Below, piece after piece: positions 1 through 37,242 of a DNA stretch of 37,242 nucleotides. This DNA comes from a virus, in UHGV virus genome UHGV-1405961. One strand, given 5' to 3'. Position 1 is the stretch's first letter, and the number at the start of each line of letters is the position of its first letter. The position numbers were made by a program, and so were the translations under genes. The notes beneath the pieces were generated by a model. It was not told where the DNA came from. It did not search any database and saw only the letters and a program-made list of their open reading frames with translations.

Positions 1-152
1 CCTATCTCTTATCTGGAGATACAGCTACTGTCCGGTGTTTCAGGGGGCTACATCACTCCATTCGTGGGATATACAATCATGCTCAGTACATGGATAAGCG
101 CCGGGAAATGATGCAGTGGTGGGCTGACTGGATTGATGAGAAGGTGTCATAG
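1..152 (+). CDS. Partial CDS (3' end only, stop at 150-152); tail ...RGIYNHAQYMDKRREMMQWWADWIDEKVS resembles the C-terminus of P4-type tyrosine integrases
   Basis: Open frame runs from the window edge to TAG at 150-152, convergent with the tailspike gene. The MMQWWADWID tail and a Tyr in an R-x-x-Y context are recalled from P4-family integrase C-termini; not verified by search. Confidence 0.3.
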   Translation, partial: YLLSGDTATVRCFRGLHHSIRGIYNHAQYMDKRREMMQWWADWIDEKVS

Positions 153-240
153 GAAAGCAGCACAAAGCCTTGCAAACCGATGCAAAGCTTTGTGTGCCCC
201 ACTTTTGTCTCAAATAATCTTTCCGTCCTATGCTCGAAGG

Positions 241-2184
241 TTATGCTAGAGCCATTCTGGTATTTGCGAAAGCCATCGCCTCACTTTGTGATGCAAAACT
301 TGCAACAAAATAGTCAGCCAGATATAAAACACTCTCAGAAGAGGTGGTAACATATAACGACGCAGATTCTGATGCATCAGCCTGAGCCACTCCAAATGTA
401 CTGACCCATTCACCTTGCTTGAGATGAATACCACCCAAAGTGACCCCCCCTGTAATCCTCATATTCATATCACCTGAATTAAGTCTGGCATTGATACCCC
501 ACACATACCACAAGCCCTTGGTGATGGTGAAATTGGAGTCAGTTAATTCCAGAACAGCGTTAGCAGGGAATGTAAACGATTCGCAATTTTTTGAATGAAG
601 CCCCATACCTACTAAGGACCCTGTTACACTAGCATTCCCCCCCCATGTATGAGTTCCGCTATCAAAAGGTATTGCTGCTAACTTATTACCCGATGGAAGA
701 TTAAACAATCTACCTTTTGTAATAGAACCCCTCAAACACAGGTCAATGGTGTGAATCTTACCCGTCTGTGAAGCTATACTCTCAACAATAACATCTTTAC
801 CAGAAGAACCATTAAGATAAGTATCATAGGATTTAATAGTACTATCAGCATCTATCTCTATATTCTGATTTCCATCAGCATTATCGAAACGACAGCCATA
901 TGTTACAAGGTTTGACCGTTCTAATTTTATGCTGTTTATGTATGAATATTCAGCATAGAAAATGCTTGTGTCAATTAAATGTAAAGTTCTTGGTTCTATA
1001 GCAGCACCATCAACGTTTACTGCATCAGCGGTGGCTACAGCTTCAAACCAAACATTGGATATACCACATGGTGCAGATGGGCAATCCCCAGGCTTATTCT
1101 TAAGGTATATCCCCCCCCCTGCCGATCCTTCTATAATGGAGTCTTTTAACCACCAACCACCGATACCACCACCTGTAGATGATGCCCCTATCGTTGCATT
1201 CAGATAAACAGCATAAGTGCCAATACTGTTCATATGGAAGTTATACAGAGTGTCTGCTCCACAGTGCATCTCTGTACCACTGATGGCGTGATATCCCCAG
1301 TCACAATTGTTAATACCTATACTACGAAAAGTATTACCAATATTTCCAGAAGGTTTAGAAATTGCTTTATTAATGTGATGGATGTAGGTATCGCTTATAT
1401 TGTGACGACCCGAGTACTGGTCCGTAGGGTCATAACCAAAACCGACAGAACCAGTTGTACCGGTTCCGTCTATTTCAAAATTAGAACTATGCCTGAACTG
1501 CCAGTGCGGTGTTGATAATTTTGCCATCACGGCCGTTGAGAAATCACCCTGTGGTTTTATTACAACCGACCCCCCAACTCCTTTTAGTTGCGCATTACCT
1601 AGTGTTACATTCTCAGTATAAACACCAGGAGAAACCAGCAGGTCATTTTTTGGTAAAGAGGAATCTATGGCTTCTTGTAATGTTGAAAAATCTTTTGAAT
1701 GCCTAATATCATTAATATGATCAAGCAAAGTTCTTTCACCGCTACCTATATTCTTAGAGCCATCACTTGCTTGAAGGGCGGATCTGCTTTGCGCATCATC
1801 AACCAGATTCAAACCACCAGGAGCTGCGAGATCTTGCCTTAGTTGATCAGGGTCGTACTTAAGCACATTTGGATAATAAAACTGCTGCGCACCATACGCG
1901 TCATACACAGTCATAGAATGGCCTTGTACGGTAACAAACTTTGCAATTTGCCCGTTGTATACCGGATATCCAGCAGCGTTAATGATGATTGGTTGCGAAA
2001 CAGGAACGTGAGATCCGTCTTCGTTCTCCACATAAACCTGAATCTGGTTTTCAGGATTTACCGGGTCAGTGTCAATTTTACCGATATAAATTTTGCCATT
2101 GGCTACGGCTTTAAAAGAACGCGCCATAGTGAAGAGTTGCGAAGGCATACTCACTACAACATTGGCATTTATTGAATCTGTCAT
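241..2184 (-). CDS. Tailspike protein (P22 gp9-like N-terminal head-binding domain; divergent beta-helix receptor-binding domain)
   Basis: 647-aa ORF. First ~110 aa ([12 protein letters not shown]...[11 protein letters not shown]...[12 protein letters not shown]...NVLKYDPDQ) match the conserved P22-family head-binding domain; the remainder is Gly/Ser/Asn-rich, typical of a beta-helix. Last gene of the late operon; GGAG Shine-Dalgarno 8 nt upstream. Confidence 0.85.
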
Positions 2185-2240
2185 TTAATTTGCTCCAGAT
2201 ACAAGGAATCACCGAAGCATGGCTACGATGAATTTTGGGC

Positions 2241-2265
2241 ATAAAAAAACCCAGCCGAAGCTGGG
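2241..2265 (-). terminator. Rho-independent terminator between ant and the tailspike gene
   Basis: Minus-strand hairpin CCCAGCTTCGGCTGGG followed by TTTTTTTA, 20 nt downstream of the ant stop. Confidence 0.6.
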
Positions 2266-2284
2266 TTGTCGCGTTGGTTATCTG

Positions 2285-3163
2285 TCAGTAGTTATGTACT
2301 GAAGGAGGTAATTCTTTATTCTTAAGTCTCATCCATGCGGAAAGATTCGCTGGTCCGTCTGGCTCATTGATATCAACATCTCGTGTGTGATTGATTAAAA
2401 CGTCTCTCGCCATTCCGATAACATACGAGAATTCATGACCGTAGTCGTAGCATCTGCCGGAATAGTTCGATTGAACTTGTTTTAATGCCGGATACAGTTC
2501 GCGGAATAATGCCTGTGAACGGTTAGCATAATCCCATAGCCATACAAGGCTGTTTGCTTCTTTTGCAGAAAGCTCGTTTGCTTTCTTCTCTTGTTTGCCG
2601 ATAAACTCGCCTTCAAGCACTACCCTGTGGATGTACTCTACGGCCAGCGGGATTTGTTCAATTGAAAGTTCATCAATGCTGTCAATACCAAAACGCTGAT
2701 GAACCATATTGTATGCATCGTCATAGCGAAGTCCTTTCTTTCCTACCAGCATGTTTACTGCATCGCGTAGCGGCGTTCTTTCCTCAACAGTGGTTTTCTT
2801 GCCTTTCACATACTCGCCATGTTTGCGAATTGAAGGTAGAACTTCTGCTGTTACCCACTTGCGGAATTTGTGCGGGACCGAACCTTTATTGACAGCATCG
2901 CGGCAGCGCAGAACCAATGTATACATACCTGATTCGCTAACAATGCTTAGATTCTGCTCACCACCAAGGGTGTAACTTAAAGTTACTCCCTTTTCATCGT
3001 CATCAAGTGCAGTAAGCGCCTTGCGTGAGTTAGTCAGGGTTAAAGCATCACAAACATCTTTTGCTACAAACCACGGCTCACCGCATTTGTTGATGACGCG
3101 GATTTCACTGTCGCCGAATTTGAAGATGGTGAAATCGTTTTGTGCCTTTGCTATACTTTTCAT
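2285..3163 (-). CDS. ant: Antirepressor Ant (Bro-N/KilA-N-like N-terminal domain), immI region
   Basis: ORF downstream of arc in a P22-type immI arrangement; motif [26 protein letters not shown]. Start set at ATG 3163 (292 aa); the ORF track extends to an upstream TTG at 3229. Confidence 0.7.
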
Positions 3164-3231
3164 GTCAATATTTCCTAATCCGATTTGTTGATACCGAAGC
3201 CCTGACTGTTCCCGCAGTTGGGGCTTCAACT

Positions 3232-3393
3232 TTACGCGCCAATGCGCCCTTCCTTCTTAAAGCTTTCCATTACTCTCTGATAAATCTCAGAGTTAACAGA
3301 CCGACCATTCTCTTCCGCCACCTTGCGTACCAAATCCAATACTTCTTTAGGCCACCGCAAATTGAACTGCGGCATCTTGCTCATTCCTTTCAT
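3232..3393 (-). CDS. arc: Arc repressor (ribbon-helix-helix)
   Basis: 53-aa product [53 protein letters not shown], recognised as essentially P22 Arc; starts at an internal Met of the 74-aa track ORF. Confidence 0.85.
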
Positions 3394-3407
3394 ATTCACC
3401 TCACAAT

Positions 3408-3455
3408 ATAGGTCCACGGTGGACCTATTGAGAATATAGTAGAGTGCTTCTATCA
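3408..3455. promoter_or_regulatory. immI operators: Omnt-like perfect palindrome ATAGGTCCACGGTGGACCTAT and Oarc-like ATAGTAGAGTGCTTCTATCAT in the divergent arc/mnt control region
   Basis: Both palindromes read directly from the sequence in the 90-bp interval between the arc and mnt starts; they match the known P22 Mnt and Arc operators as recalled. Confidence 0.7.
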
Positions 3456-3483
3456 TGTCAATACACTAACTTGGAGTGATGGC

Positions 3484-3735
3484 ATGGCTAGAGATGATCC
3501 GCACTTTAACTTCCGTATGCCTATGGAAGTAAGGGAGAAATTAAAATTCAGGGCGAAGGCGAATGGGAGATCAATGAACTCCGAGTTGTTACAAATCGTC
3601 CAAGATGCTCTATCAAAACCATCGCCTGTGACTGGATATCGCGACGATGCAGAACGACTCGCTGATGAGCAGTCAGAGCTTGTTAAGAAGATGGTGTTTG
3701 ATACGCTGAAGTATTTGTACAAAAAACCCACCTGA
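3484..3735 (+). CDS. mnt: Mnt repressor (maintenance of lysogeny, represses ant)
   Basis: 83-aa product MARDDPHFNFRMPMEVREKLKFRAKANGRSMNSELLQIVQDALSKP..., near-identical to P22 Mnt as recalled; divergent from arc. Confidence 0.85.
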   Translation: MARDDPHFNFRMPMEVREKLKFRAKANGRSMNSELLQIVQDALSKPSPVTGYRDDAERLADEQSELVKKMVFDTLKYLYKKPT

Positions 3736-3745
3736 AGGTGGGTCC
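3721..3745. terminator. Bidirectional rho-independent terminator (strong on the minus strand)
   Basis: AAAAAA-CCCACCTGAAGGTGGG-TCCTATTTATT. The hairpin contains the mnt stop codon and gives a U6 tail on the minus strand after the lipoprotein gene. Confidence 0.6.
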
Positions 3746-3751
3746 TATTTA

Positions 3752-4171
3752 TTAGTCTTGCTTTGTTGATGGTATAAGAGATGCGTTTGCCTCTTTTGGC
3801 TTCAAGGTATACATCCCACCATTAAAAGGATCTACAGCAAGCCAACCAATTAACCCACCAAACACAAGGTTTCCACCAATATACCAACCATTAGCATTGG
3901 CTTTGATTGGCAGGGTAACTGGTTCGTACCCATCCTTTTCCATAGTGATCTGGTAGCTCTTTTTGCCAAAATAACTACCATCTGACTTGGCAAGAGTTAC
4001 TCCTTGCGGGGTCTTGCCTTGCGCAACAATCACGCCTGATTCGTCTTTTACTTTAAAGCTCGCACCGGAAGGATTGCTGTTCACTTGCACGAGCTGTGTT
4101 TCGTCACCAACAATAGTTGCGCACCCAGATAACAATATAGCGCCAGCAACAACGCCGATAATCCTCTTCAT
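3752..4171 (-). CDS. Putative lipoprotein with PEGA-like domain (moron in the P22 sieA slot)
   Basis: 139 aa from ATG 4169-4171. Signal peptide with lipobox (MKRIIGVVAGAILLSGC); motif NPSGASFKV..GKTPQGVTL..YQITMEKDGYEPVTL resembles PEGA domains; Gly/Trp-rich C-terminus. Confidence 0.6.
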   Translation of the reverse strand: MKRIIGVVAGAILLSGCATIVGDETQLVQVNSNPSGASFKVKDESGVIVAQGKTPQGVTLAKSDGSYFGKKSYQITMEKDGYEPVTLPIKANANGWYIGGNLVFGGLIGWLAVDPFNGGMYTLKPKEANASLIPSTKQD

Positions 4172-4289
4172 ATCAATTTCCATATTTGAAAAAACCGGAA
4201 ACATCCTAATGACAAACCATTCAAATGTGAAGTAGGCAAAAGATGTTTACTTTTTTCATGGTATCCTGCTCAAAACTAAGGAGGTTGGT

Positions 4290-4613
4290 GTGTATACAAC
4301 AGTTATCGTGATAGCTATCGCACTCATTGTGGTTCAGTACCAACTGGCATCTTTAAAACAAAAGATATCTGACCTCAAGACTGAGAACGAAGCACTTAAA
4401 AACTCAATAAAAGATGAGAAGAACAAACTATCATTCACTATATCTGATATTGAGCAATCCATTGAAATTATTGAGAATAATATTAACAGACTAAAAAAAG
4501 AAGATATTCATGAAATCAATGACAATATCAAGGATTTGAAATCTTGGCTTAGGAATGTAGGACAAATCGCCACATCAACACGAGATAAGCTCAATCCATC
4601 CATGGATGATTAA
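4290..4613 (+). CDS. Hypothetical small membrane protein (N-terminal TM helix plus coiled coil), AT-rich moron
   Basis: GTG start 5 nt after AAGGAGG; 107 aa; hydrophobic N-terminus YTTVIVIAIALIVVQY then heptad-like K/E/N/I-rich sequence. Markedly AT-rich relative to flanks; divergent from the lipoprotein gene and convergent with the gp16-like gene. Confidence 0.55.
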   Translation: MYTTVIVIAIALIVVQYQLASLKQKISDLKTENEALKNSIKDEKNKLSFTISDIEQSIEIIENNINRLKKEDIHEINDNIKDLKSWLRNVGQIATSTRDKLNPSMDD

Positions 4614-6773
4614 TTACTCCTGTGCTATTCCGCTTAGCGACGCTACAATGCCAGCCCTCGCTAAGCGATTGAACTCTTCGTTTCCAACTGCATCACGTAT
4701 TGCTTTTACGGCGGCTTTATTTGCCATAAATCTGCGTTCCGCCGCCGCTAATGCTTCTTTACTTCCGCCAGCTCTTACTGCTTTCGTGGCTTCCTGAACT
4801 GCTTTCTCTATCGCATATCGACCGCTACGCGTGGTGGCAATTTTAGATACAGCACCTTTTAACCCGGCGCCAACTAAAGCACCTACGGCCGCGCCTGCAA
4901 TGCCCCCACCTGCTCCACCAACAATGGCACCCGACGTTGAGTTTGCAATTGCATTTAATACTGTTGAGGTAACGTTGGATAAACCAGCGTCAAGATCACG
5001 TAGAACATTGGCTGTTCTCCCTGTTCTTTCAATATACTGCTGAGGCTTCACTGCCGCTCTTGCAAGAGTGCCATATGCATCAGCAATTCTTCCAAGTTCT
5101 GAGGAATATCTGCTAATGGCTTTTACATTTTGTGGGGTAAGTATCCCTGCGATATGGTTAATTCCTGCTGCATCAGATTTGCCACCACGTACACCATGCG
5201 AGATAGCATCCTGCAACATTGATGATATAGCAGGAACACGCTCTGATTCTGGCAGCGCGCGGATCATAGAATGGAATCCAGCAGGACCATTAAGACCTTT
5301 AGCTGACGATGATTGAAGAGATTTTACTCCATTCGTAATCAGTGCATCTGTTGCCAAATCACGCCCAAAAACAGACTCTGCACTCTCTTGTGCGGATAGC
5401 CTCGCTTTAGACAGATCATTAGCTTTTTGCCAGTCATCAAGAAATCCGCCGTTTTCCGCCATTGTGCGCATATCATCAGTAATTGCCCGGCGTATTTCCC
5501 CTGCTCTCCTTGCCGCATTTGCCTCTCCGCTACGCTTATATTTTTGCTCAGCATCAGCAAATTTCGCTCTCCATGCTTTCATGCCATCAAATGTTACTCC
5601 ACCTTGATTGTTTGCCTGAACAAACTGTTTCATTTCAGGAGTAAGCGGTATGCCAGCAGATCGCTCTGCCTGAATAACGGCATTACCATTTAGCATTCTT
5701 GCTTTTTGATTTGGCATTGTTGACCGCACGTCATCCCATGCCGCGCGCTCGGCATCCTTCATCTGATCAAGATTTTGAAGAATCCTTTGTTTTATAGCCG
5801 CACTTTTTTCTGATGCCGTTCCAGATGCGGCCCCAAATTCATCAAGGTTTCGACTTAACTTTGATGATATTTCGTTAAATGCTGCCTGATGGGCATCCTG
5901 AACAATTCCTGGTGTTGATGCCAATGCGCCTTCGGCTTGTGCAATTCCACGACTTCCAGATCGCATTCCTGGTGTTAATGCGTTTATATCAATTCCAGCA
6001 GACTCAGCCGCTTTTGCTACATCTTCGGACACATTAGCGGCCTGACTGGCAATTGACTGACGCCCAGCACCTGACTTTGCCATCCTAGAAACATCATTAG
6101 CAGAATTCAGTGCTGCACCACCAAGAGCCTGTGAAACTCTTGGCGCAATAACGCGCCCGACACCTGAAAGAACGCCTTGAGCACCAATATTGATACCACC
6201 GTTAATGGCAGCATTTTGTGCAAAGTCGCCCTCCTGATTTGCAGCATCAGCAAGAGAACCTGCAATCATGTTTCCTGCGGAACCGATATCTCCAGCGAGC
6301 TTTGCTGTCGCTCCAACAGCTTTTGCCGCTGTGCCAATTGGCAGGAGATACCCACCAATTGTTTCACCGGCTTGTGCGTAAGGGTCTGTCGGTCGATCGA
6401 CAGGGCGATAAACATCATCCAAAACCTTGGGGCCACCAAGCCCCTGACTGATTGCATTAATCAGACTTGCGCCACCCTGCAATACGTCAAATGGTATGTT
6501 TACCAGACCACGACCAGCCTGTTCTGCAATTTGCCCTGCACTTTGACCACCAGTGAGCCAATCGCCAGCTTGTTGCATCAATGATGGTTCTTCTTTCTGC
6601 TGCTGAGGCGGAGGGTATGCTGCATAAAACTGATCTCTTGCTTCAGCCCATTTGTCACCAGCCTTAGGGGCAACAACCTCATCAAAATATTGCGCTTGAG
6701 CCTGTGCTTTCTGTTCTTCAGTTAACGCCTGATACTGTGGAGAGGCGATAACATCTTTCCATGCTTTAGCCAT
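4614..6773 (-). CDS. DNA ejection (internal virion) protein, P22 gp16-like
   Basis: 719-aa Ala/Gly/Gln-rich ORF, last of the gp7/gp20/gp16 trio by synteny; start overlaps the upstream stop. Confidence 0.65.
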
Positions 6774-8161
6774 TAATCACCCCATAGTGAAGAAAAGTTA
6801 CTGCTGGCTGCTGGCTGTGATACCTGTGTAGGTTGAGATTGCTGCCGCTGAGATTTACCAACATTAACGTTATATTGTTGGTTGTAATTGTTGGTGTATT
6901 CCTGAATCTCACGAATAGACTGCTGCATAGCCTCCGGGCTTGAATAGTCAACCTGCGGCATCCCCTGAAAATACATCTTCGCTTCTGCAACGGTGTTAAT
7001 ACCACTGGCACCCATGTCCCTTGCTGCCGCCACCCCCTGATTCTGCATTCTGCCCTGAATACGTTGTGCTGAGTTATATAACTGGCGCTGCTCTTTTCCT
7101 GTTAATCGGCTGCGAACATCAGCACCAATTGCTGGATTACCTGCACCGCCTGTCATTCCTGTCATGAAATCGAGAGCAGAAGCGTCTGCATTTGCGATCG
7201 CGTCGATATCCTTCTTCATGGCATAGTTTTGTGCTGATGCAGACGATGTTGCAGGAGCTGCGATTGAACTGGCAGGAACGCGAACCATATTCCCCTCGTT
7301 GTCGATGCCTTCGTAGAACGCATTAGCCCCAGCGCCGTGAAGTTTCCCGCCTACCGTTACAGTTCTGCCATCTGATAACTGAACTGTACGCTCATCATTC
7401 CCAGCGGTTCCTCTTGTTGACGCTCGCTGCATTGCCAAATCCTGCCCGCGTCGCGCAGTAGAAGCAGATAAGTCCTGACCGCGCATCGTGATGTTCTGGC
7501 CTCGTGCTGTTAGCGCCTCGCCAGCCTGATTGCTGCGGATTGTCTCTGCAAGTTTTCCGCGATCAATCTCACGACCAGCCATCTTGTCCTGAACATTGAA
7601 GTAATCAATCGGACCAAGAGCAGCCATTCCAAGGTGATCAACAAACTCACCAAATCCTGAAGGATTCTGCTGATACATCTGAGCAACGTTATTAGGGTCA
7701 ACACCGACGCGCGCCAGCTCATTGGCGTTGTTTTGCAGCCATGATTGCATTGCTTCTGGAGACGATGACGCAAGGCGTGCGCCAGCCGCTAAGGTGCCGA
7801 TAGAATTACGCTGATCTTCATCAATGAATCCCATGCCTTTACGAACGGATTCAATCTGGTCTGGATATTGAGTAGCCAACTGACGCAAAGCTCCGCGATC
7901 ACCAGACGCATAAGCATTAGCGTACGCCTGCTGAAATTCTTTCTGCCGCTGAGCCTGCTTTTCCTGCTGAAACACCCCTGCAATACCTGAAAGACCTTGC
8001 AAAGCAGTCAGCCCAACATTGTTAGCGCCTGAACGCTCAATATCATTGTTCTGCCTGATAAGCTGAAGCGTATTGCCGATGTCATTTACGCTCGGAGCGT
8101 TTGAGTTGACGCCGCCGATACCAGCTAACAATCCGCCATTTGATCCTTGCCAAGTAGCCAT
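6773..8161 (-). CDS. DNA ejection protein, P22 gp20-like
   Basis: 462-aa ORF (P22 gp20 is about 470 aa) in the conserved position between gp7 and gp16 homologs. Confidence 0.65.
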
Positions 8162-21948: not shown

Positions 21949-22223
21949 TGGACAAACACCCTCCCATTGTTAACCAATTTTTTAAGGGTAAGCACAATGG
22001 CCCGATCCATTTCAGCCCTTCGCTCTTCCCTGCTCATATCTCTCCCATTATCAATTCTTGAATGACAATCAACACATAGCGCAGCAGTAAGGCAATCATC
22101 TACTTTAATCCCAACCCCCTTCCCTTCATTTCTGTGAGCGGCCTGAACTCCGTATCTTCCGCAAAGAACGCAAAATTCAATATCCCTGACTGCCTGAAGC
22201 CATTTTTTGCTTCTAAACATCAA
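21945..22223 (-). CDS. Cys-rich nin-region protein (DUF1364/YbcO-like, putative nuclease)
   Basis: 92 aa with a CVLCG...H...C..CH motif; position between rusA and ninF; family assignment from memory only. Confidence 0.5.
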   Translation of the reverse strand: MMFRSKKWLQAVRDIEFCVLCGRYGVQAAHRNEGKGVGIKVDDCLTAALCVDCHSRIDNGRDMSREERRAEMDRAIVLTLKKLVNNGRVFVQ

Positions 22224-22722
22224 TCCCCTCCAAAAAACGTCGGTACGCTGATTTGTTTTTTATGTTGCACACTGTCTGCGCACAAACACCAAATTCTTTG
22301 GCTATATCTCTGTATTTGCCTTTTGATTTATATATTGATTTCACTTGTTCTGGCGTTAGTTTGCAGAAGTGATGATTAAACCCATGAACAAGCAATCCGG
22401 AATCAAATCCATGTTTCGCATTTTCTGTTCGCGTTACCCACTCAAGATTTTCAACTTTATTATTAAGTTTATTTCCATCCTTGTGATTAACTTCCGGTTT
22501 GCCATCTGGGTTATCAATAAATACTTCTGCAACAATTCTGTGAACCATTTTATATGATGGTCTTTTCCCGCCACCTGGATACAGACCGACAAATGCATAT
22601 CCTCCTGGTTTAATGCCATGAGATAATTTTTTTGATTTACGGCATGAAATGATGTCTCCATTTTCATTTACTTTATATATACCCTCAAAGCCGGGGATAT
22701 CTTTTTCTTTAACATCATTCAT
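22213..22722 (-). CDS. HNH homing-endonuclease-like protein (NUMOD4-like N-terminus plus HNH motif)
   Basis: 169 aa; N-terminal IPGFEGIYKVNENGDIIS and downstream NHKDGNKLNNKVENLEW..TRTEN fit the phage HNH_3 homing-endonuclease architecture. AT-rich; start overlaps the ninF stop. Confidence 0.75.
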   Translation of the reverse strand: MNDVKEKDIPGFEGIYKVNENGDIISCRKSKKLSHGIKPGGYAFVGLYPGGGKRPSYKMVHRIVAEVFIDNPDGKPEVNHKDGNKLNNKVENLEWVTRTENAKHGFDSGLLVHGFNHHFCKLTPEQVKSIYKSKGKYRDIAKEFGVCAQTVCNIKNKSAYRRFLEGIDV

Positions 22723-23296: not shown

Positions 23297-23473
23297 TCAC
23301 TTCCTCGCACGATGTCTTAGCCACCGGATATCCCACAGGTGAGCCGTGTAGTTGAAGGTTTTTACGTCAGATTCTTTTGGGATTGGCTTGCGTTTATTTC
23401 TGGAGCGTTTCGTTGGAAGGTATTTGCAGTTTTCGCAGATGATGTCGGTGATACTTCGTCGCTGTCGTCTCAT
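23297..23473 (-). CDS. ninE: NinE
   Basis: 58 aa, [51 protein letters not shown]..., recalled as lambda NinE; ATG overlaps the ninB stop (ATGA). Confidence 0.7.
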
Positions 23474-23880
23474 TCGTACCTCCTGTCGGTAAATCTGACA
23501 CCCTGACCAATAGCCCATGCTGTCGTGTACTCAATCAGGCTTGCCATGCGCTTCACGCTCATCTGCGCGCTACTTTCGCGAATGTTGACGTATTCGCCTT
23601 CAAGCCCGGGCAAAACATCAGCTTCCTGCTTTGTTGCCACTGCATGACCGCTTATCAACAAAACCTTCCATTGTTCCGGTTTTAACCATTTGCCGCACCA
23701 TTGAACCTGACGAGCGATATCCGACAGCATCGCGTGAAATTTTGCGTTCTGGTCAAGGTTGCGCTTGTAGTCAGTAATGCGGATGGTGATTGGCTTGTCT
23801 TTATCGAGTGGTGTTGCGAGGATGGCATTTATTGCGGCTTGCTGTTGTTGCTTAGTTCGGAGGAAGATTGTTTGCTTCAT
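23470..23880 (-). CDS. ninB: NinB (Orf-family recombination mediator)
   Basis: 136 aa; pattern ...[30 protein letters not shown]... aligns with lambda NinB as recalled. Confidence 0.7.
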
Positions 23881-34703: not shown

Positions 34704-35365
34704 GCAAGATTGACTATCAGGTACTGCGTGAGGCAGCAGTAGCAATTGAAACAGTAGCAACACCTCAAAAATTGCTGGCATTTCGTATGAAAGTAACACC
34801 TCAGGTTGTGCTGGCTCTACTGGATGAACGAGATGCATTAAATGAACGCCTAGCCGAACTGGAGGCTGATTTAGCAGGGCTGGCCGAAGACCACCAGAAA
34901 GCGACTGAGTCAATTAAGCAGGCTGATGCAGCTGTTAAGTTGGCACACGAGAAGTTTTCGGCGCTGGCGGCGGAGAATGCGGGGCTGAAAGACACTCTAT
35001 CAGCAGTGATTGACCGCAGTAACGAGCCTGATTATCAAAGCATCGGAATGGGCTGTGGTGTTGAGGATAACGGTCTTCAGACTGACGGTTATAACGCCTG
35101 TGAATATGGATGGCGCGAAGCAATGGATCGCATTTACTCAGAAGTTATTCCAGACACTATTCCTGAAACCCCGGCGACAGACGCCTTCCTGGCTGAAGTG
35201 CGGGCGCATGACCTCAACGCTTTCATTCGGCATCACAGTGCAGAACTGGATGCGCATATTAAAAACGGTGGTGAGCAGTTCGACGAAAAATCAGTACGCA
35301 TCAGAGACATCATCGTCTCAGCCCGCTTGTTCAGGGAGCAGATTCGCAAGGAGGCCGCCCAATGA
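34700..35365 (+). CDS. Hypothetical protein
   Basis: 221 aa from GTG 34700, 6 nt after AAAGGAGG (the track start at 34679 is an upstream in-frame GTG); internal coiled-coil segment. Confidence 0.55.
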
Positions 35366-35706
35366 GCAACATCGACAAACAGGCGTTAAATCAAGAAAAA
35401 ATTGAATGGCTCAATAAATTAGCTGATATGGAGTATTGCAAAAGCAATCCTGGGCATTGGCTGATGAGCTTGAAGGATACAAACATGCTTGCGAAATTGG
35501 CTCTGCGCTCAGTGGCGCTACTGGATGAACTGGAAGCCGCAGAGAAGCGAATCGCTGAACTGGAAGCGAAGCTCGATAGCGCAGATAAATTGCAAGATAG
35601 CGCATTTCGTCATGGTCTTCAGCATGGCTTCAGTTTAGGTCAAACGGATAATCAGGCTGGATTTGAAGAGTGCTTATCTGCCTATGGCACCGGTAAAGGA
35701 GAGTGA
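35362..35706 (+). CDS. Hypothetical protein
   Basis: 114 aa; AAGGAGG Shine-Dalgarno; ATG overlaps the upstream stop. Confidence 0.5.
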   Translation: MSNIDKQALNQEKIEWLNKLADMEYCKSNPGHWLMSLKDTNMLAKLALRSVALLDELEAAEKRIAELEAKLDSADKLQDSAFRHGLQHGFSLGQTDNQAGFEECLSAYGTGKGE

Positions 35707-35981
35707 ATGTGAAAAATTATCTCAGCAATTTAGCCAGCATGCTTCAGGGGATTGCAGGTGTCATTTCAGACGGCGAGCGGGTGCAGAAAGAGTGCCCTGC
35801 GCACTTAAAGTCAGCACTACTCGAGGCTTCTCACGCGCTAGATGGTCAATCGGTCAGGGTCAATTATCCGCCTAATGGAAAGCCTGAAATTGTTAATGCC
35901 CGCGGACACCATCGACCGCTTACCTTCCGGGAACGAGTGGCAATCCGCTTACTTGGTGGCAGGACGGAGATTCGCCCATGA
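35703..35981 (+). CDS. Hypothetical protein
   Basis: ~90-aa ORF with GTG start (35703 or 35709) overlapping the upstream stop. Confidence 0.45.
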   Translation: MNVKNYLSNLASMLQGIAGVISDGERVQKECPAHLKSALLEASHALDGQSVRVNYPPNGKPEIVNARGHHRPLTFRERVAIRLLGGRTEIRP

Positions 35982-36673
35982 GCACTATTACCAGAGAACT
36001 GGCAAAGCTGTTCAGAAAAATTACGAATTCTGAAATTGATGCGGAGGGTAACGCTCATGTTGTTTTATCTCCTGCTGATAGCCTCCTGATTAATAATGCG
36101 CGTATCGCGCTGGCATCGCTCGAAGCGGAGCCTGTGGCGTGGGCGCACAGATTAATCAACAAGCGTAACGGAGTCGTTCACCCTTGGGTTTACGGTAGCG
36201 CAGAGGCGTGTCCAAGCGAGGGGGATATCTTCAATATTGAGGTAATGCCGCTCTACACCGCCCCTCCAGCGCCGGTAGCTGTGCCTGAGTGTTTCAAGCG
36301 CCTTCTCCACCATGCTTACGGCATGACAATGGGGCATGACTGGAACAAAGGGACTATGGCTGGACATCACCGCGCCAAGCTGTGTCAGGCTGTTGATGAG
36401 TGCCGGGCAGCCATGCTTCAGGGTGCCGAACCTGTAAGTAATCGTGATGAGTTGCCAGATGGCTGGGTGGCTTGCAGTGATCGGATGCCAGAGAACAAGC
36501 CAGGTAGCTATGAGTATTTGGTATTCGAGTCGCTCAATAATGGGGTGCATCACGATTACTGGAATGTGCCTGATGTAGGTGATAATTGTCAGTTCACACC
36601 ATTCTGGAATCATTACGACCGCTATGTAACCCACTGGATGCCACTGCCAGCAGCACCGCAGCAGGAGGCATGA
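35978..36673 (+). CDS. DUF551-domain protein
   Basis: 231 aa; C-terminal DGWVACSDRMPE...YLVF...HWMPLP pattern typical of DUF551 proteins found in lambdoid early-left regions. Confidence 0.65.
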   Translation: MSTITRELAKLFRKITNSEIDAEGNAHVVLSPADSLLINNARIALASLEAEPVAWAHRLINKRNGVVHPWVYGSAEACPSEGDIFNIEVMPLYTAPPAPVAVPECFKRLLHHAYGMTMGHDWNKGTMAGHHRAKLCQAVDECRAAMLQGAEPVSNRDELPDGWVACSDRMPENKPGSYEYLVFESLNNGVHHDYWNVPDVGDNCQFTPFWNHYDRYVTHWMPLPAAPQQEA

Positions 36674-36912
36674 TGTACGACAAATATCACCTTAGCCGAT
36701 GCGATGCCATGGAATGGCTTGCTGAGCACTATCCTGTATTTCCTGCGTCAATGCCTGATGTTCCGATGCGTATCGAATGGTGCAGCGAAAACCTGTTTAA
36801 GGGGTGGAGTTTCGTTATCTTGCTCGATGGTTCACTGGTCTTTGCTGACTGCCTGTCACCTCCCATCCGGGCAGAAGACATGGCTGGCTTCAAACTGCCT
36901 GAGTTGACATAG
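36670..36912 (+). CDS. Hypothetical protein
   Basis: ~80-aa ORF from ATGATG at 36670/36673 with AGGAGG just upstream (the track ORF begins further upstream at 36586). Confidence 0.45.
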   Translation: MMYDKYHLSRCDAMEWLAEHYPVFPASMPDVPMRIEWCSENLFKGWSFVILLDGSLVFADCLSPPIRAEDMAGFKLPELT

Positions 36913-36955
36913 CTACCATACAAGCGATATGGGGATTCACATATCGACCCGCCCA

Positions 36956-36980
36956 GGGCCTCTTCGGAGGCCTTTCTCTT
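36956..36980 (+). terminator. Rho-independent terminator ending the DUF551 gene block
   Basis: GGGCCTCTTCGGAGGCC followed by TTTCTCTT. Confidence 0.6.
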
Positions 36981-37162
36981 GAGTTGATTTTGTTGAATCA
37001 ACCGTCCATACTTTCTTTGCTGACGGCCTGAACACCCGGCGGTGACTTCTGCGCATTTAAGGGGACTTAAATGCGACCACAATCTGAACTCCTCACCTTG
37101 TCACAGATGCAGAAATGCACCTGCGATTTTCTGCATTCTGCGTTACCTCTCGGAGGTGGCGT

Positions 37163-37242
37163 ATGAAACAGCCTGTTTTCTACCTCCGCGACGAACGCGT
37201 TCGCGATAACCTCATCGACTACATCAGGAAGCTGCCTGTTAA
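37163..37242 (+). CDS. 5' end of an ORF running off the window (MKQPVFYLRDERVRDNLIDYIRKLPV...)
   Basis: ATG at 37163 preceded by GGAGGTGG; open to the window edge; function not recognisable from 26 aa. Confidence 0.3.
   Translation, partial: MKQPVFYLRDERVRDNLIDYIRKLPV

Follow-up and report, generated by a model that had tools for sequence, protein, structure and literature searches.

Features at the left edge of the window

The DNA analyzed here (37,242 nucleotides of the virus genome UHGV-1405961, referred to as the window) begins with a short open frame that converges on a tailspike gene. On the plus strand frame 3 is open from nt 3, reads YLLSGDTATVRCFRGLHHSIRGIYNHAQYMDKRREMMQWWADWIDEKVS and ends with the stop codon at 150–152. 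Its integrase-derived residues (SIRGIYNH...KVS) are only the last 31 codons and the stop of an intS-type (P4-like) tyrosine integrase gene, i.e., the 3′-terminal 97 nt located at 56–152 (plus strand) with the codons SIRGIYNHAQYMDKRREMMQWWADWIDEKVS followed by the stop. The preceding nucleotides 1–55 represent the end of an insertion sequence (IS), and the junction between IS and int lies exactly at 55|56. On sequence grounds the left-edge frame is a chimera, in which the first 18 codons (nt 1–55) are read-through of the IS end and the remainder is int. The preliminary description, which had seen in this frame the 3′ end of an integrase gene, was correct for nt 56–152 and mistaken for the 55 nt in front of them. 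The IS junction, which it missed, is the real cause of the truncated appearance of the gene.

Identity of the integrase end was established by several comparisons. In pairwise alignment the window region 56–258 is 100% identical to the 3′ end of intS and the downstream spacer of Escherichia coli ET734, and nothing upstream of nt 56 aligned to the integrase locus of this strain. In a megablast search of complete E. coli genomes dozens of matches annotated as intS covered window positions 63–146 with 89–90% DNA identity, and a single match, again from ET734, spanned 56–840 (97.6%). Alignment to integrase families, which had been proposed in the preliminary description, was equally positive: positions 368–394 of the 413 in NCBIfam NF007246 (integrase) match residues 19–45 of the 49-aa window read (E=1.3e-6), and the full-length homologue from ET734 contains PF00589. 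Stubs of 31 aa and 49 aa are too short for Pfam, where neither obtained a meaningful match. The integrase family and its boundary are therefore supported independently by the ET734 identity and by the NF007246 match. As judged from this similarity, which is far beyond chance, the stub is the C-terminus of a P4-type (IntS) tyrosine integrase. It retains the motif RGIY with the catalytic Tyr nucleophile, and the other catalytic residues are absent; neither a complete catalytic domain (R-K-H-R-H plus Tyr; PF00589) nor the N-terminal arm-binding domain PF13356 is found in it. A stub of 31 codons with this content cannot encode an active recombinase. No other integrase was found in the 37 kb of the window.

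The integrase stop (150–152, plus strand) is separated from the tailspike gene (241–2184, minus strand) by a spacer of 88 nt (153–240), so that the two genes are indeed convergent as had been noticed from the beginning. The spacer contains a stable hairpin at ~160–195, for which RNA folding energies of −23.7 kcal/mol (z −2.8; plus strand) and −31.6 kcal/mol (z −3.5; minus strand) were calculated. A scan for consensus terminators did not flag this hairpin because its T tracts are weak; we regard it as a likely transcription stop for both convergent genes. The 3′ end of int together with the hairpin, up to ~nt 212, is conserved across many P22-like and lambdoid phages. Genes of the gtr, oac or neuO type are absent from the spacer 153–240, in agreement with the earlier observation that no gtr or oac conversion genes lie between int and the tailspike gene. 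The latter encodes a P22-type tailspike of 647 aa (PF09008 Head_binding, E=5e-65). Its N-terminal part shows 88–94% identity to the tailspike genes of HK620, Sf6 and CUS-3, and its closest overall relatives are those of the prophages of ET734 and PSJ-07.

The insertion sequence in front of the integrase end

The first 55 nt of the window are the terminal nucleotides (minus strand, the end upstream of orfA) of a 1336-bp insertion sequence of the IS3 family. In a sensitive search with nt 1–75, nt 1–55/57 had counterparts in 879 E. coli records, in many cases with 95–100% identity, and this end occurs at up to 26 places per E. coli genome, on chromosomes as well as on plasmids. Its neighbors are unrelated to each other and include fliC, ydeE, an oxidoreductase gene and integrase fragments. 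At four loci inspected (L003, L004, L012 and L013) the matching stretch forms one end of an element of 1336 bp annotated as “IS3 family transposase, programmed frameshift”, whose transposase strand points away from the side corresponding to the window. The transposase of the copy described here is accordingly predicted to lie on the minus strand to the left of the window, and the element is clipped by the window edge. Its two ends read TGATCTTGACCC... and ...GGGGGCTACATCA. Affiliation with the IS3 family follows from the terminus in ...CA, from its identity with the terminus of OrfAB-encoding copies and from its multi-copy occurrence at unrelated loci. An explanation of nt 1–55 as a frameshifted and divergent part of int was considered and dropped, since these nucleotides are a multi-copy IS end.

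Within the IS3 family the element resembles IS2 (IS2 group) in its terminal sequence (..CCCCCTGAA..C..GACA..), in the programmed frameshift and in the length of ~1.33 kb, and we take the translation of its OrfA to be IS2-like. It differs from IS2 in the target-site duplications. In the IS3 family these are normally 3–5 bp long, and 5 bp in IS2, whereas in complete genomes all five independent copies examined (L001 6786–8121, L003 2720–4055, L004 1220–2555, L012 520–1855 and L013 520–1855) are simple insertions flanked by duplications of 15–16 bp; the short duplications of 3–5 bp were seen in none of the five. A literature search for IS3-family elements with 16-bp duplications returned nothing relevant.

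The same junction between IS and int is present in the metagenome contig UMJI01080884.1 (7.7 kb), which matches window positions 15–7673 at 100% and also stops inside the IS. As this is a second, independent contig, the junction is real and represents a position at which short-read assemblies break. The left edge of the window is thus probably such a short-read assembly break inside the IS. In viral_contigs and genome_contigs the exact junction pattern was absent, UMJI01080884.1 being the only contig, and a metagenomic one, in which it was found. The reciprocal junction that is predicted for the other side of the IS, CTCCATTCGTGGGAT N0-3 TGATCTTGACCC, had no match in viral_contigs or genome_contigs.

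Prophage context and related int–tailspike arrangements

The window is a P22-like (Lederbergvirus) prophage. Besides the PF09008 tailspike it encodes Ant (Bro-N and P22_AR_C), an ERF protein, Anti-RecBCD_p2 and gp16 (PF26808 P22_gp16), and it carries the sar RNA. The genes for the tailspike, Ant and gp16 are located on the minus strand near the left end. In this region also lies the sar antisense RNA (3165–3231, plus strand; RF00262, 71.6 bits, E=3.7e-13), which overlaps the start of ant (2285–3229, minus strand) and is followed by Arc/Mnt-like ORFs at 3232–3456 and 3484–3735; a P22-type immI region composed of ant, the Arc/Mnt-like ORFs and the sar RNA is hence present. A DnaB-type helicase, NinB and NinX are encoded on the minus strand at ~23–26 kb, and cI (S24), N, Erf and Abc2 on the plus strand. 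Beside NinX the nin region includes a gene for an HNH endonuclease with a NUMOD4 motif (22213–22722, minus strand; PF13392 E=6e-11, PF07463 E=1e-5), which is probably an insertion of the homing-endonuclease type.

At the right end (35349–37242) the PL (early-left) operon runs into a module with ead-like, DUF551, hypothetical and NinB genes. From ~nt 35349 on the sequence agrees at 100% with the nin region in the PR operon of another lambdoid prophage, the one at thrW in E. coli 2021CK-01361. The window stops 78 nt inside this second NinB gene (37163 onward, plus strand). The NinB gene that belongs to the P22-like prophage itself (23470–23880, minus strand) is not related to it in sequence. In comparison with ET734 the PL operon of the window does not reach Eag, torI and attR. 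This join results either from recombination between two prophages or from the assembly. Taken along with the IS in int, it points to a prophage that may be defective and would not be able to excise.

The most informative relative is found in ET734 (NZ_CP100922.1), where a complete P22-like prophage is located between argW and dsdC in the order yfdC, tRNA-Arg, intS (plus strand), tailspike (minus strand), ant, arc ... cI ... Erf, Abc2, Ead, Eag, torI, dsdC. Its intS lies 160 nt downstream of the tRNA-Arg gene (argW), and intS and torI occupy opposite ends of the prophage. The full-length ET734 IntS has 385 codons, ends with ...IEKQLAHANSGSIRGIYNHAQYMDKRREMMQWWADWIDEKVS before the stop and shows P4-like architecture, its domains (residues 2–365) being the arm-binding PF13356, PF22022 and PF00589 (199–365). 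The joint composed of the 3′ end of int, the 88-nt spacer and the 3′ end of the tailspike gene is identical in both prophages (56–258), their tailspikes are 95–99% identical, and ET734 also holds a copy of the same 1336-bp IS. The element is inserted in the tailspike gene there and in int here, and the tailspike gene of the window is intact. Otherwise the ET734 locus (L001 4940–6097, 6186–8826) is degraded: intS contains an internal stop, and two insertions, the 1336-bp element just named and an IS1, split the tailspike gene.

A second relative, PSJ-07 (NZ_AP027619.1; L002 5990–6150, L015 8326–9676), has its P22-like prophage in the 5′ end of sbcB and possesses an own, intact and different int together with an HTH/xis gene as a pair at the PL end. 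Beside its tailspike gene, which is of the same type as in the window (94%), a 58-nt relic of the IntS 3′ end and the identical hairpin spacer are retained. This remnant is shorter than the stub described here (its breakpoint corresponds to window nt 95), and it is bounded by unrelated phage DNA instead of an IS. PSJ-07 indicates that int 3′ end, spacer and tailspike 3′ end travel together, as a single mosaic block, among phages whose integration modules differ.

The position of an integrase gene next to the tailspike gene deserves comment. The preliminary description had started from the premise, modelled on P22 itself, that in P22-like prophages the end of the tailspike gene abuts attR or conversion genes and not an integrase. 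For the sub-family considered here the annotations of CUS-3, Sf6 and ET734 contradict this premise, as does the description of the KplE1/HK620/Sf6/CUS-3 recombination module (PMC2951348). In that module attL and the promoter of intS overlap, and transcription of int is uncoupled from that of the gene for the recombination directionality factor (RDF; torI) (Panis et al., PMC2951348). The record of the CUS-3 prophage lists an attL core at 1–16, int at 192–1349 (plus strand), neuO, the tailspike gene at 2526–5471 (minus strand) and ant, and in Sf6 the tailspike gene is followed by oac and int, with the attP core located upstream of int. Since attP lies upstream of int in this module, the order in the integrated state is attL (in argW), int, an optional O-antigen gene and the tailspike gene, with xis (torI) at the far end. 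An int gene adjoining the tailspike gene is therefore the normal and already described position for this module.

The window shares with the module of KplE1 (CPS-53), HK620, Sf6 and CUS-3 the integrase family (its 3′ end being 100% identical to an annotated intS), the orientation of int and its convergence on the end of a P22-like tailspike gene, and the conserved block of int 3′ end and hairpin. As in CUS-3, Sf6 and ET734, int (plus strand) leads away from the attL side and its 3′ end faces the tailspike gene (minus strand), here across 88 nt. It differs in that int is cut down to 31 codons by the IS. Moreover, int and the tailspike gene are not separated by a gene for O-antigen modification, a role played by oac in Sf6 and by neuO in CUS-3; in HK620, too, such a gene comes after the tailspike gene. 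Its absence is the one mild variation, and it is common to ET734 and PSJ-07. The attL/argW and torI/attR parts of the module are not inside the window. In a tblastn search with ET734 TorI no torI/xis match was obtained in the window and an RDF of the TorI type next to attR was likewise not seen there; the RDF may be encoded beyond the window or may have been lost. The landmarks of an integration site for which the preliminary description had proposed to look were absent as well: a tRNA scan of the whole window detected no tRNA gene, the 16-nt argW-type att core had no match in the window when up to 3 mismatches were allowed, and self-BLAST revealed no direct repeat common to its left and right ends.

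Origin of the truncated integrase gene

We consider it well supported, with some room for doubt, that an IS2-like element of the IS3 family interrupts or truncates the IntS/KplE1-type integrase gene of a P22-like (Lederbergvirus-type) E. coli prophage. The stub would then most likely be the prophage's own int, the IS a simple insertion and the integration site argW. According to this scheme integration into argW would have produced the order attL, int, converging tailspike gene, late genes, PR, cI, PL operon, xis (torI) and attR. The IS would later have landed in int and left the stub of 31 codons, so that the integrase would be inactivated irrespective of what lies beyond the IS. Given a simple insertion, the remaining ~355 codons should be located ~1.3 kb leftward, with attL and argW beyond them. 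On the far side of the IS a duplicated CTCCATTCGTGGGAT(A) would be expected next to intS codons, and further on argW, carrying the attL core CTGCAGGGGACACCAT at its 3′ end, at least 2.5 kb to the left of nt 1. That the gene is the prophage's own is favored by ET734, the closest relative at this joint, which has full intS at argW within a single prophage. Points against this scheme are that neither the 5′ part of int nor attL or argW is seen, that the junction is known from one equally short metagenome contig only, that its predicted counterpart on the other side of the IS had no match in viral_contigs or genome_contigs, that an argW-type att core, a tRNA gene and torI/xis are all missing from the window, and that PSJ-07 keeps an IntS 3′ relic beside the same tailspike type in a prophage with a different integrase and site.

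The last observation is the basis of the main rival explanation, according to which recombination transferred an IntS-type int as a passenger together with the tailspike module, and the stub is what survives of it as a fossil; the prophage would use another integrase and att site, and the IS would have landed in or beside the relic. PSJ-07, with its prophage in sbcB, its own int and HTH/xis pair at the PL end, and the 58-nt relic followed by the identical spacer and the same tailspike type, demonstrates that such a constellation exists. In the window, however, int reaches the IS terminus directly and without an independent breakpoint, ET734 with 100% identity over 56–258 has its full int at argW, and no other integrase is encoded within 37 kb. 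We regard this passenger origin as rather improbable. The same low probability is given to its more general form, in which the block of int 3′ end, hairpin and tailspike 3′ end would serve recurrently as a recombination joint for the transfer of tailspike (host-range) modules. The stub would then be a passenger relic, and the prophage, its int bounded by an IS and its PL arm joined to the nin region of another prophage, a grounded hybrid of two lambdoid elements. It is also unlikely, to a slightly smaller degree, that the gene is the prophage's own int and that the IS now abuts unrelated DNA because an IS-mediated adjacent deletion removed the 5′ part of int along with attL and the neighboring host DNA. 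The junction alone fits an insertion and an insertion followed by deletion equally well, and the run of the PL operon into a foreign NinB gene at the right end testifies to a second rearrangement; on the other hand, all five IS copies examined are simple insertions with target duplications of 15–16 bp, which makes a simple insertion the likeliest event here too.

Two further possibilities had been put forward in the preliminary description. It had suggested that the gene could be the phage's own int if the source molecule was circular or permuted, with int continuing from the right end of the window. Own int is indeed the most plausible assignment, and int faces the end of the tailspike gene in the circular genomes of Sf6 and HK620 too, but the window begins with an IS end and not with int, its right edge lies 78 nt inside the NinB gene of a different lambdoid element and not in xis or int, and the two ends have no sequence overlap. 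A circular or permuted source, to which we ascribe a barely perceptible probability, is excluded on this evidence. The alternative that int belongs to a separate, second integrated element or integrase remnant marking an integration hotspot is very improbable as well. The locus argW is a known hotspot that is also home to KplE1/CPS-53 (PMC2951348). Yet in ET734 a single P22-like prophage spans the whole distance from argW–intS to torI–dsdC, including the same joint and no extra element, and the equivalent int in CUS-3 and Sf6 is the phage's own, so that a separate element found no support.

If the preferred interpretation, an IS inserted in the prophage's own int, is correct, the prophage is predicted to be unable to excise or integrate on its own, which is relevant only to the annotation of the prophage of this strain as defective. 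The arrangement itself is already known, and in P22-like prophages of the argW/IntS type the adjacency of int and the tailspike gene carries no information on hotspots or permutation. Should the block of int 3′ end, hairpin and tailspike 3′ end prove to be a recurrent recombination joint, it would mean that tailspike modules pass between P22-like prophages with different integrases and att sites.
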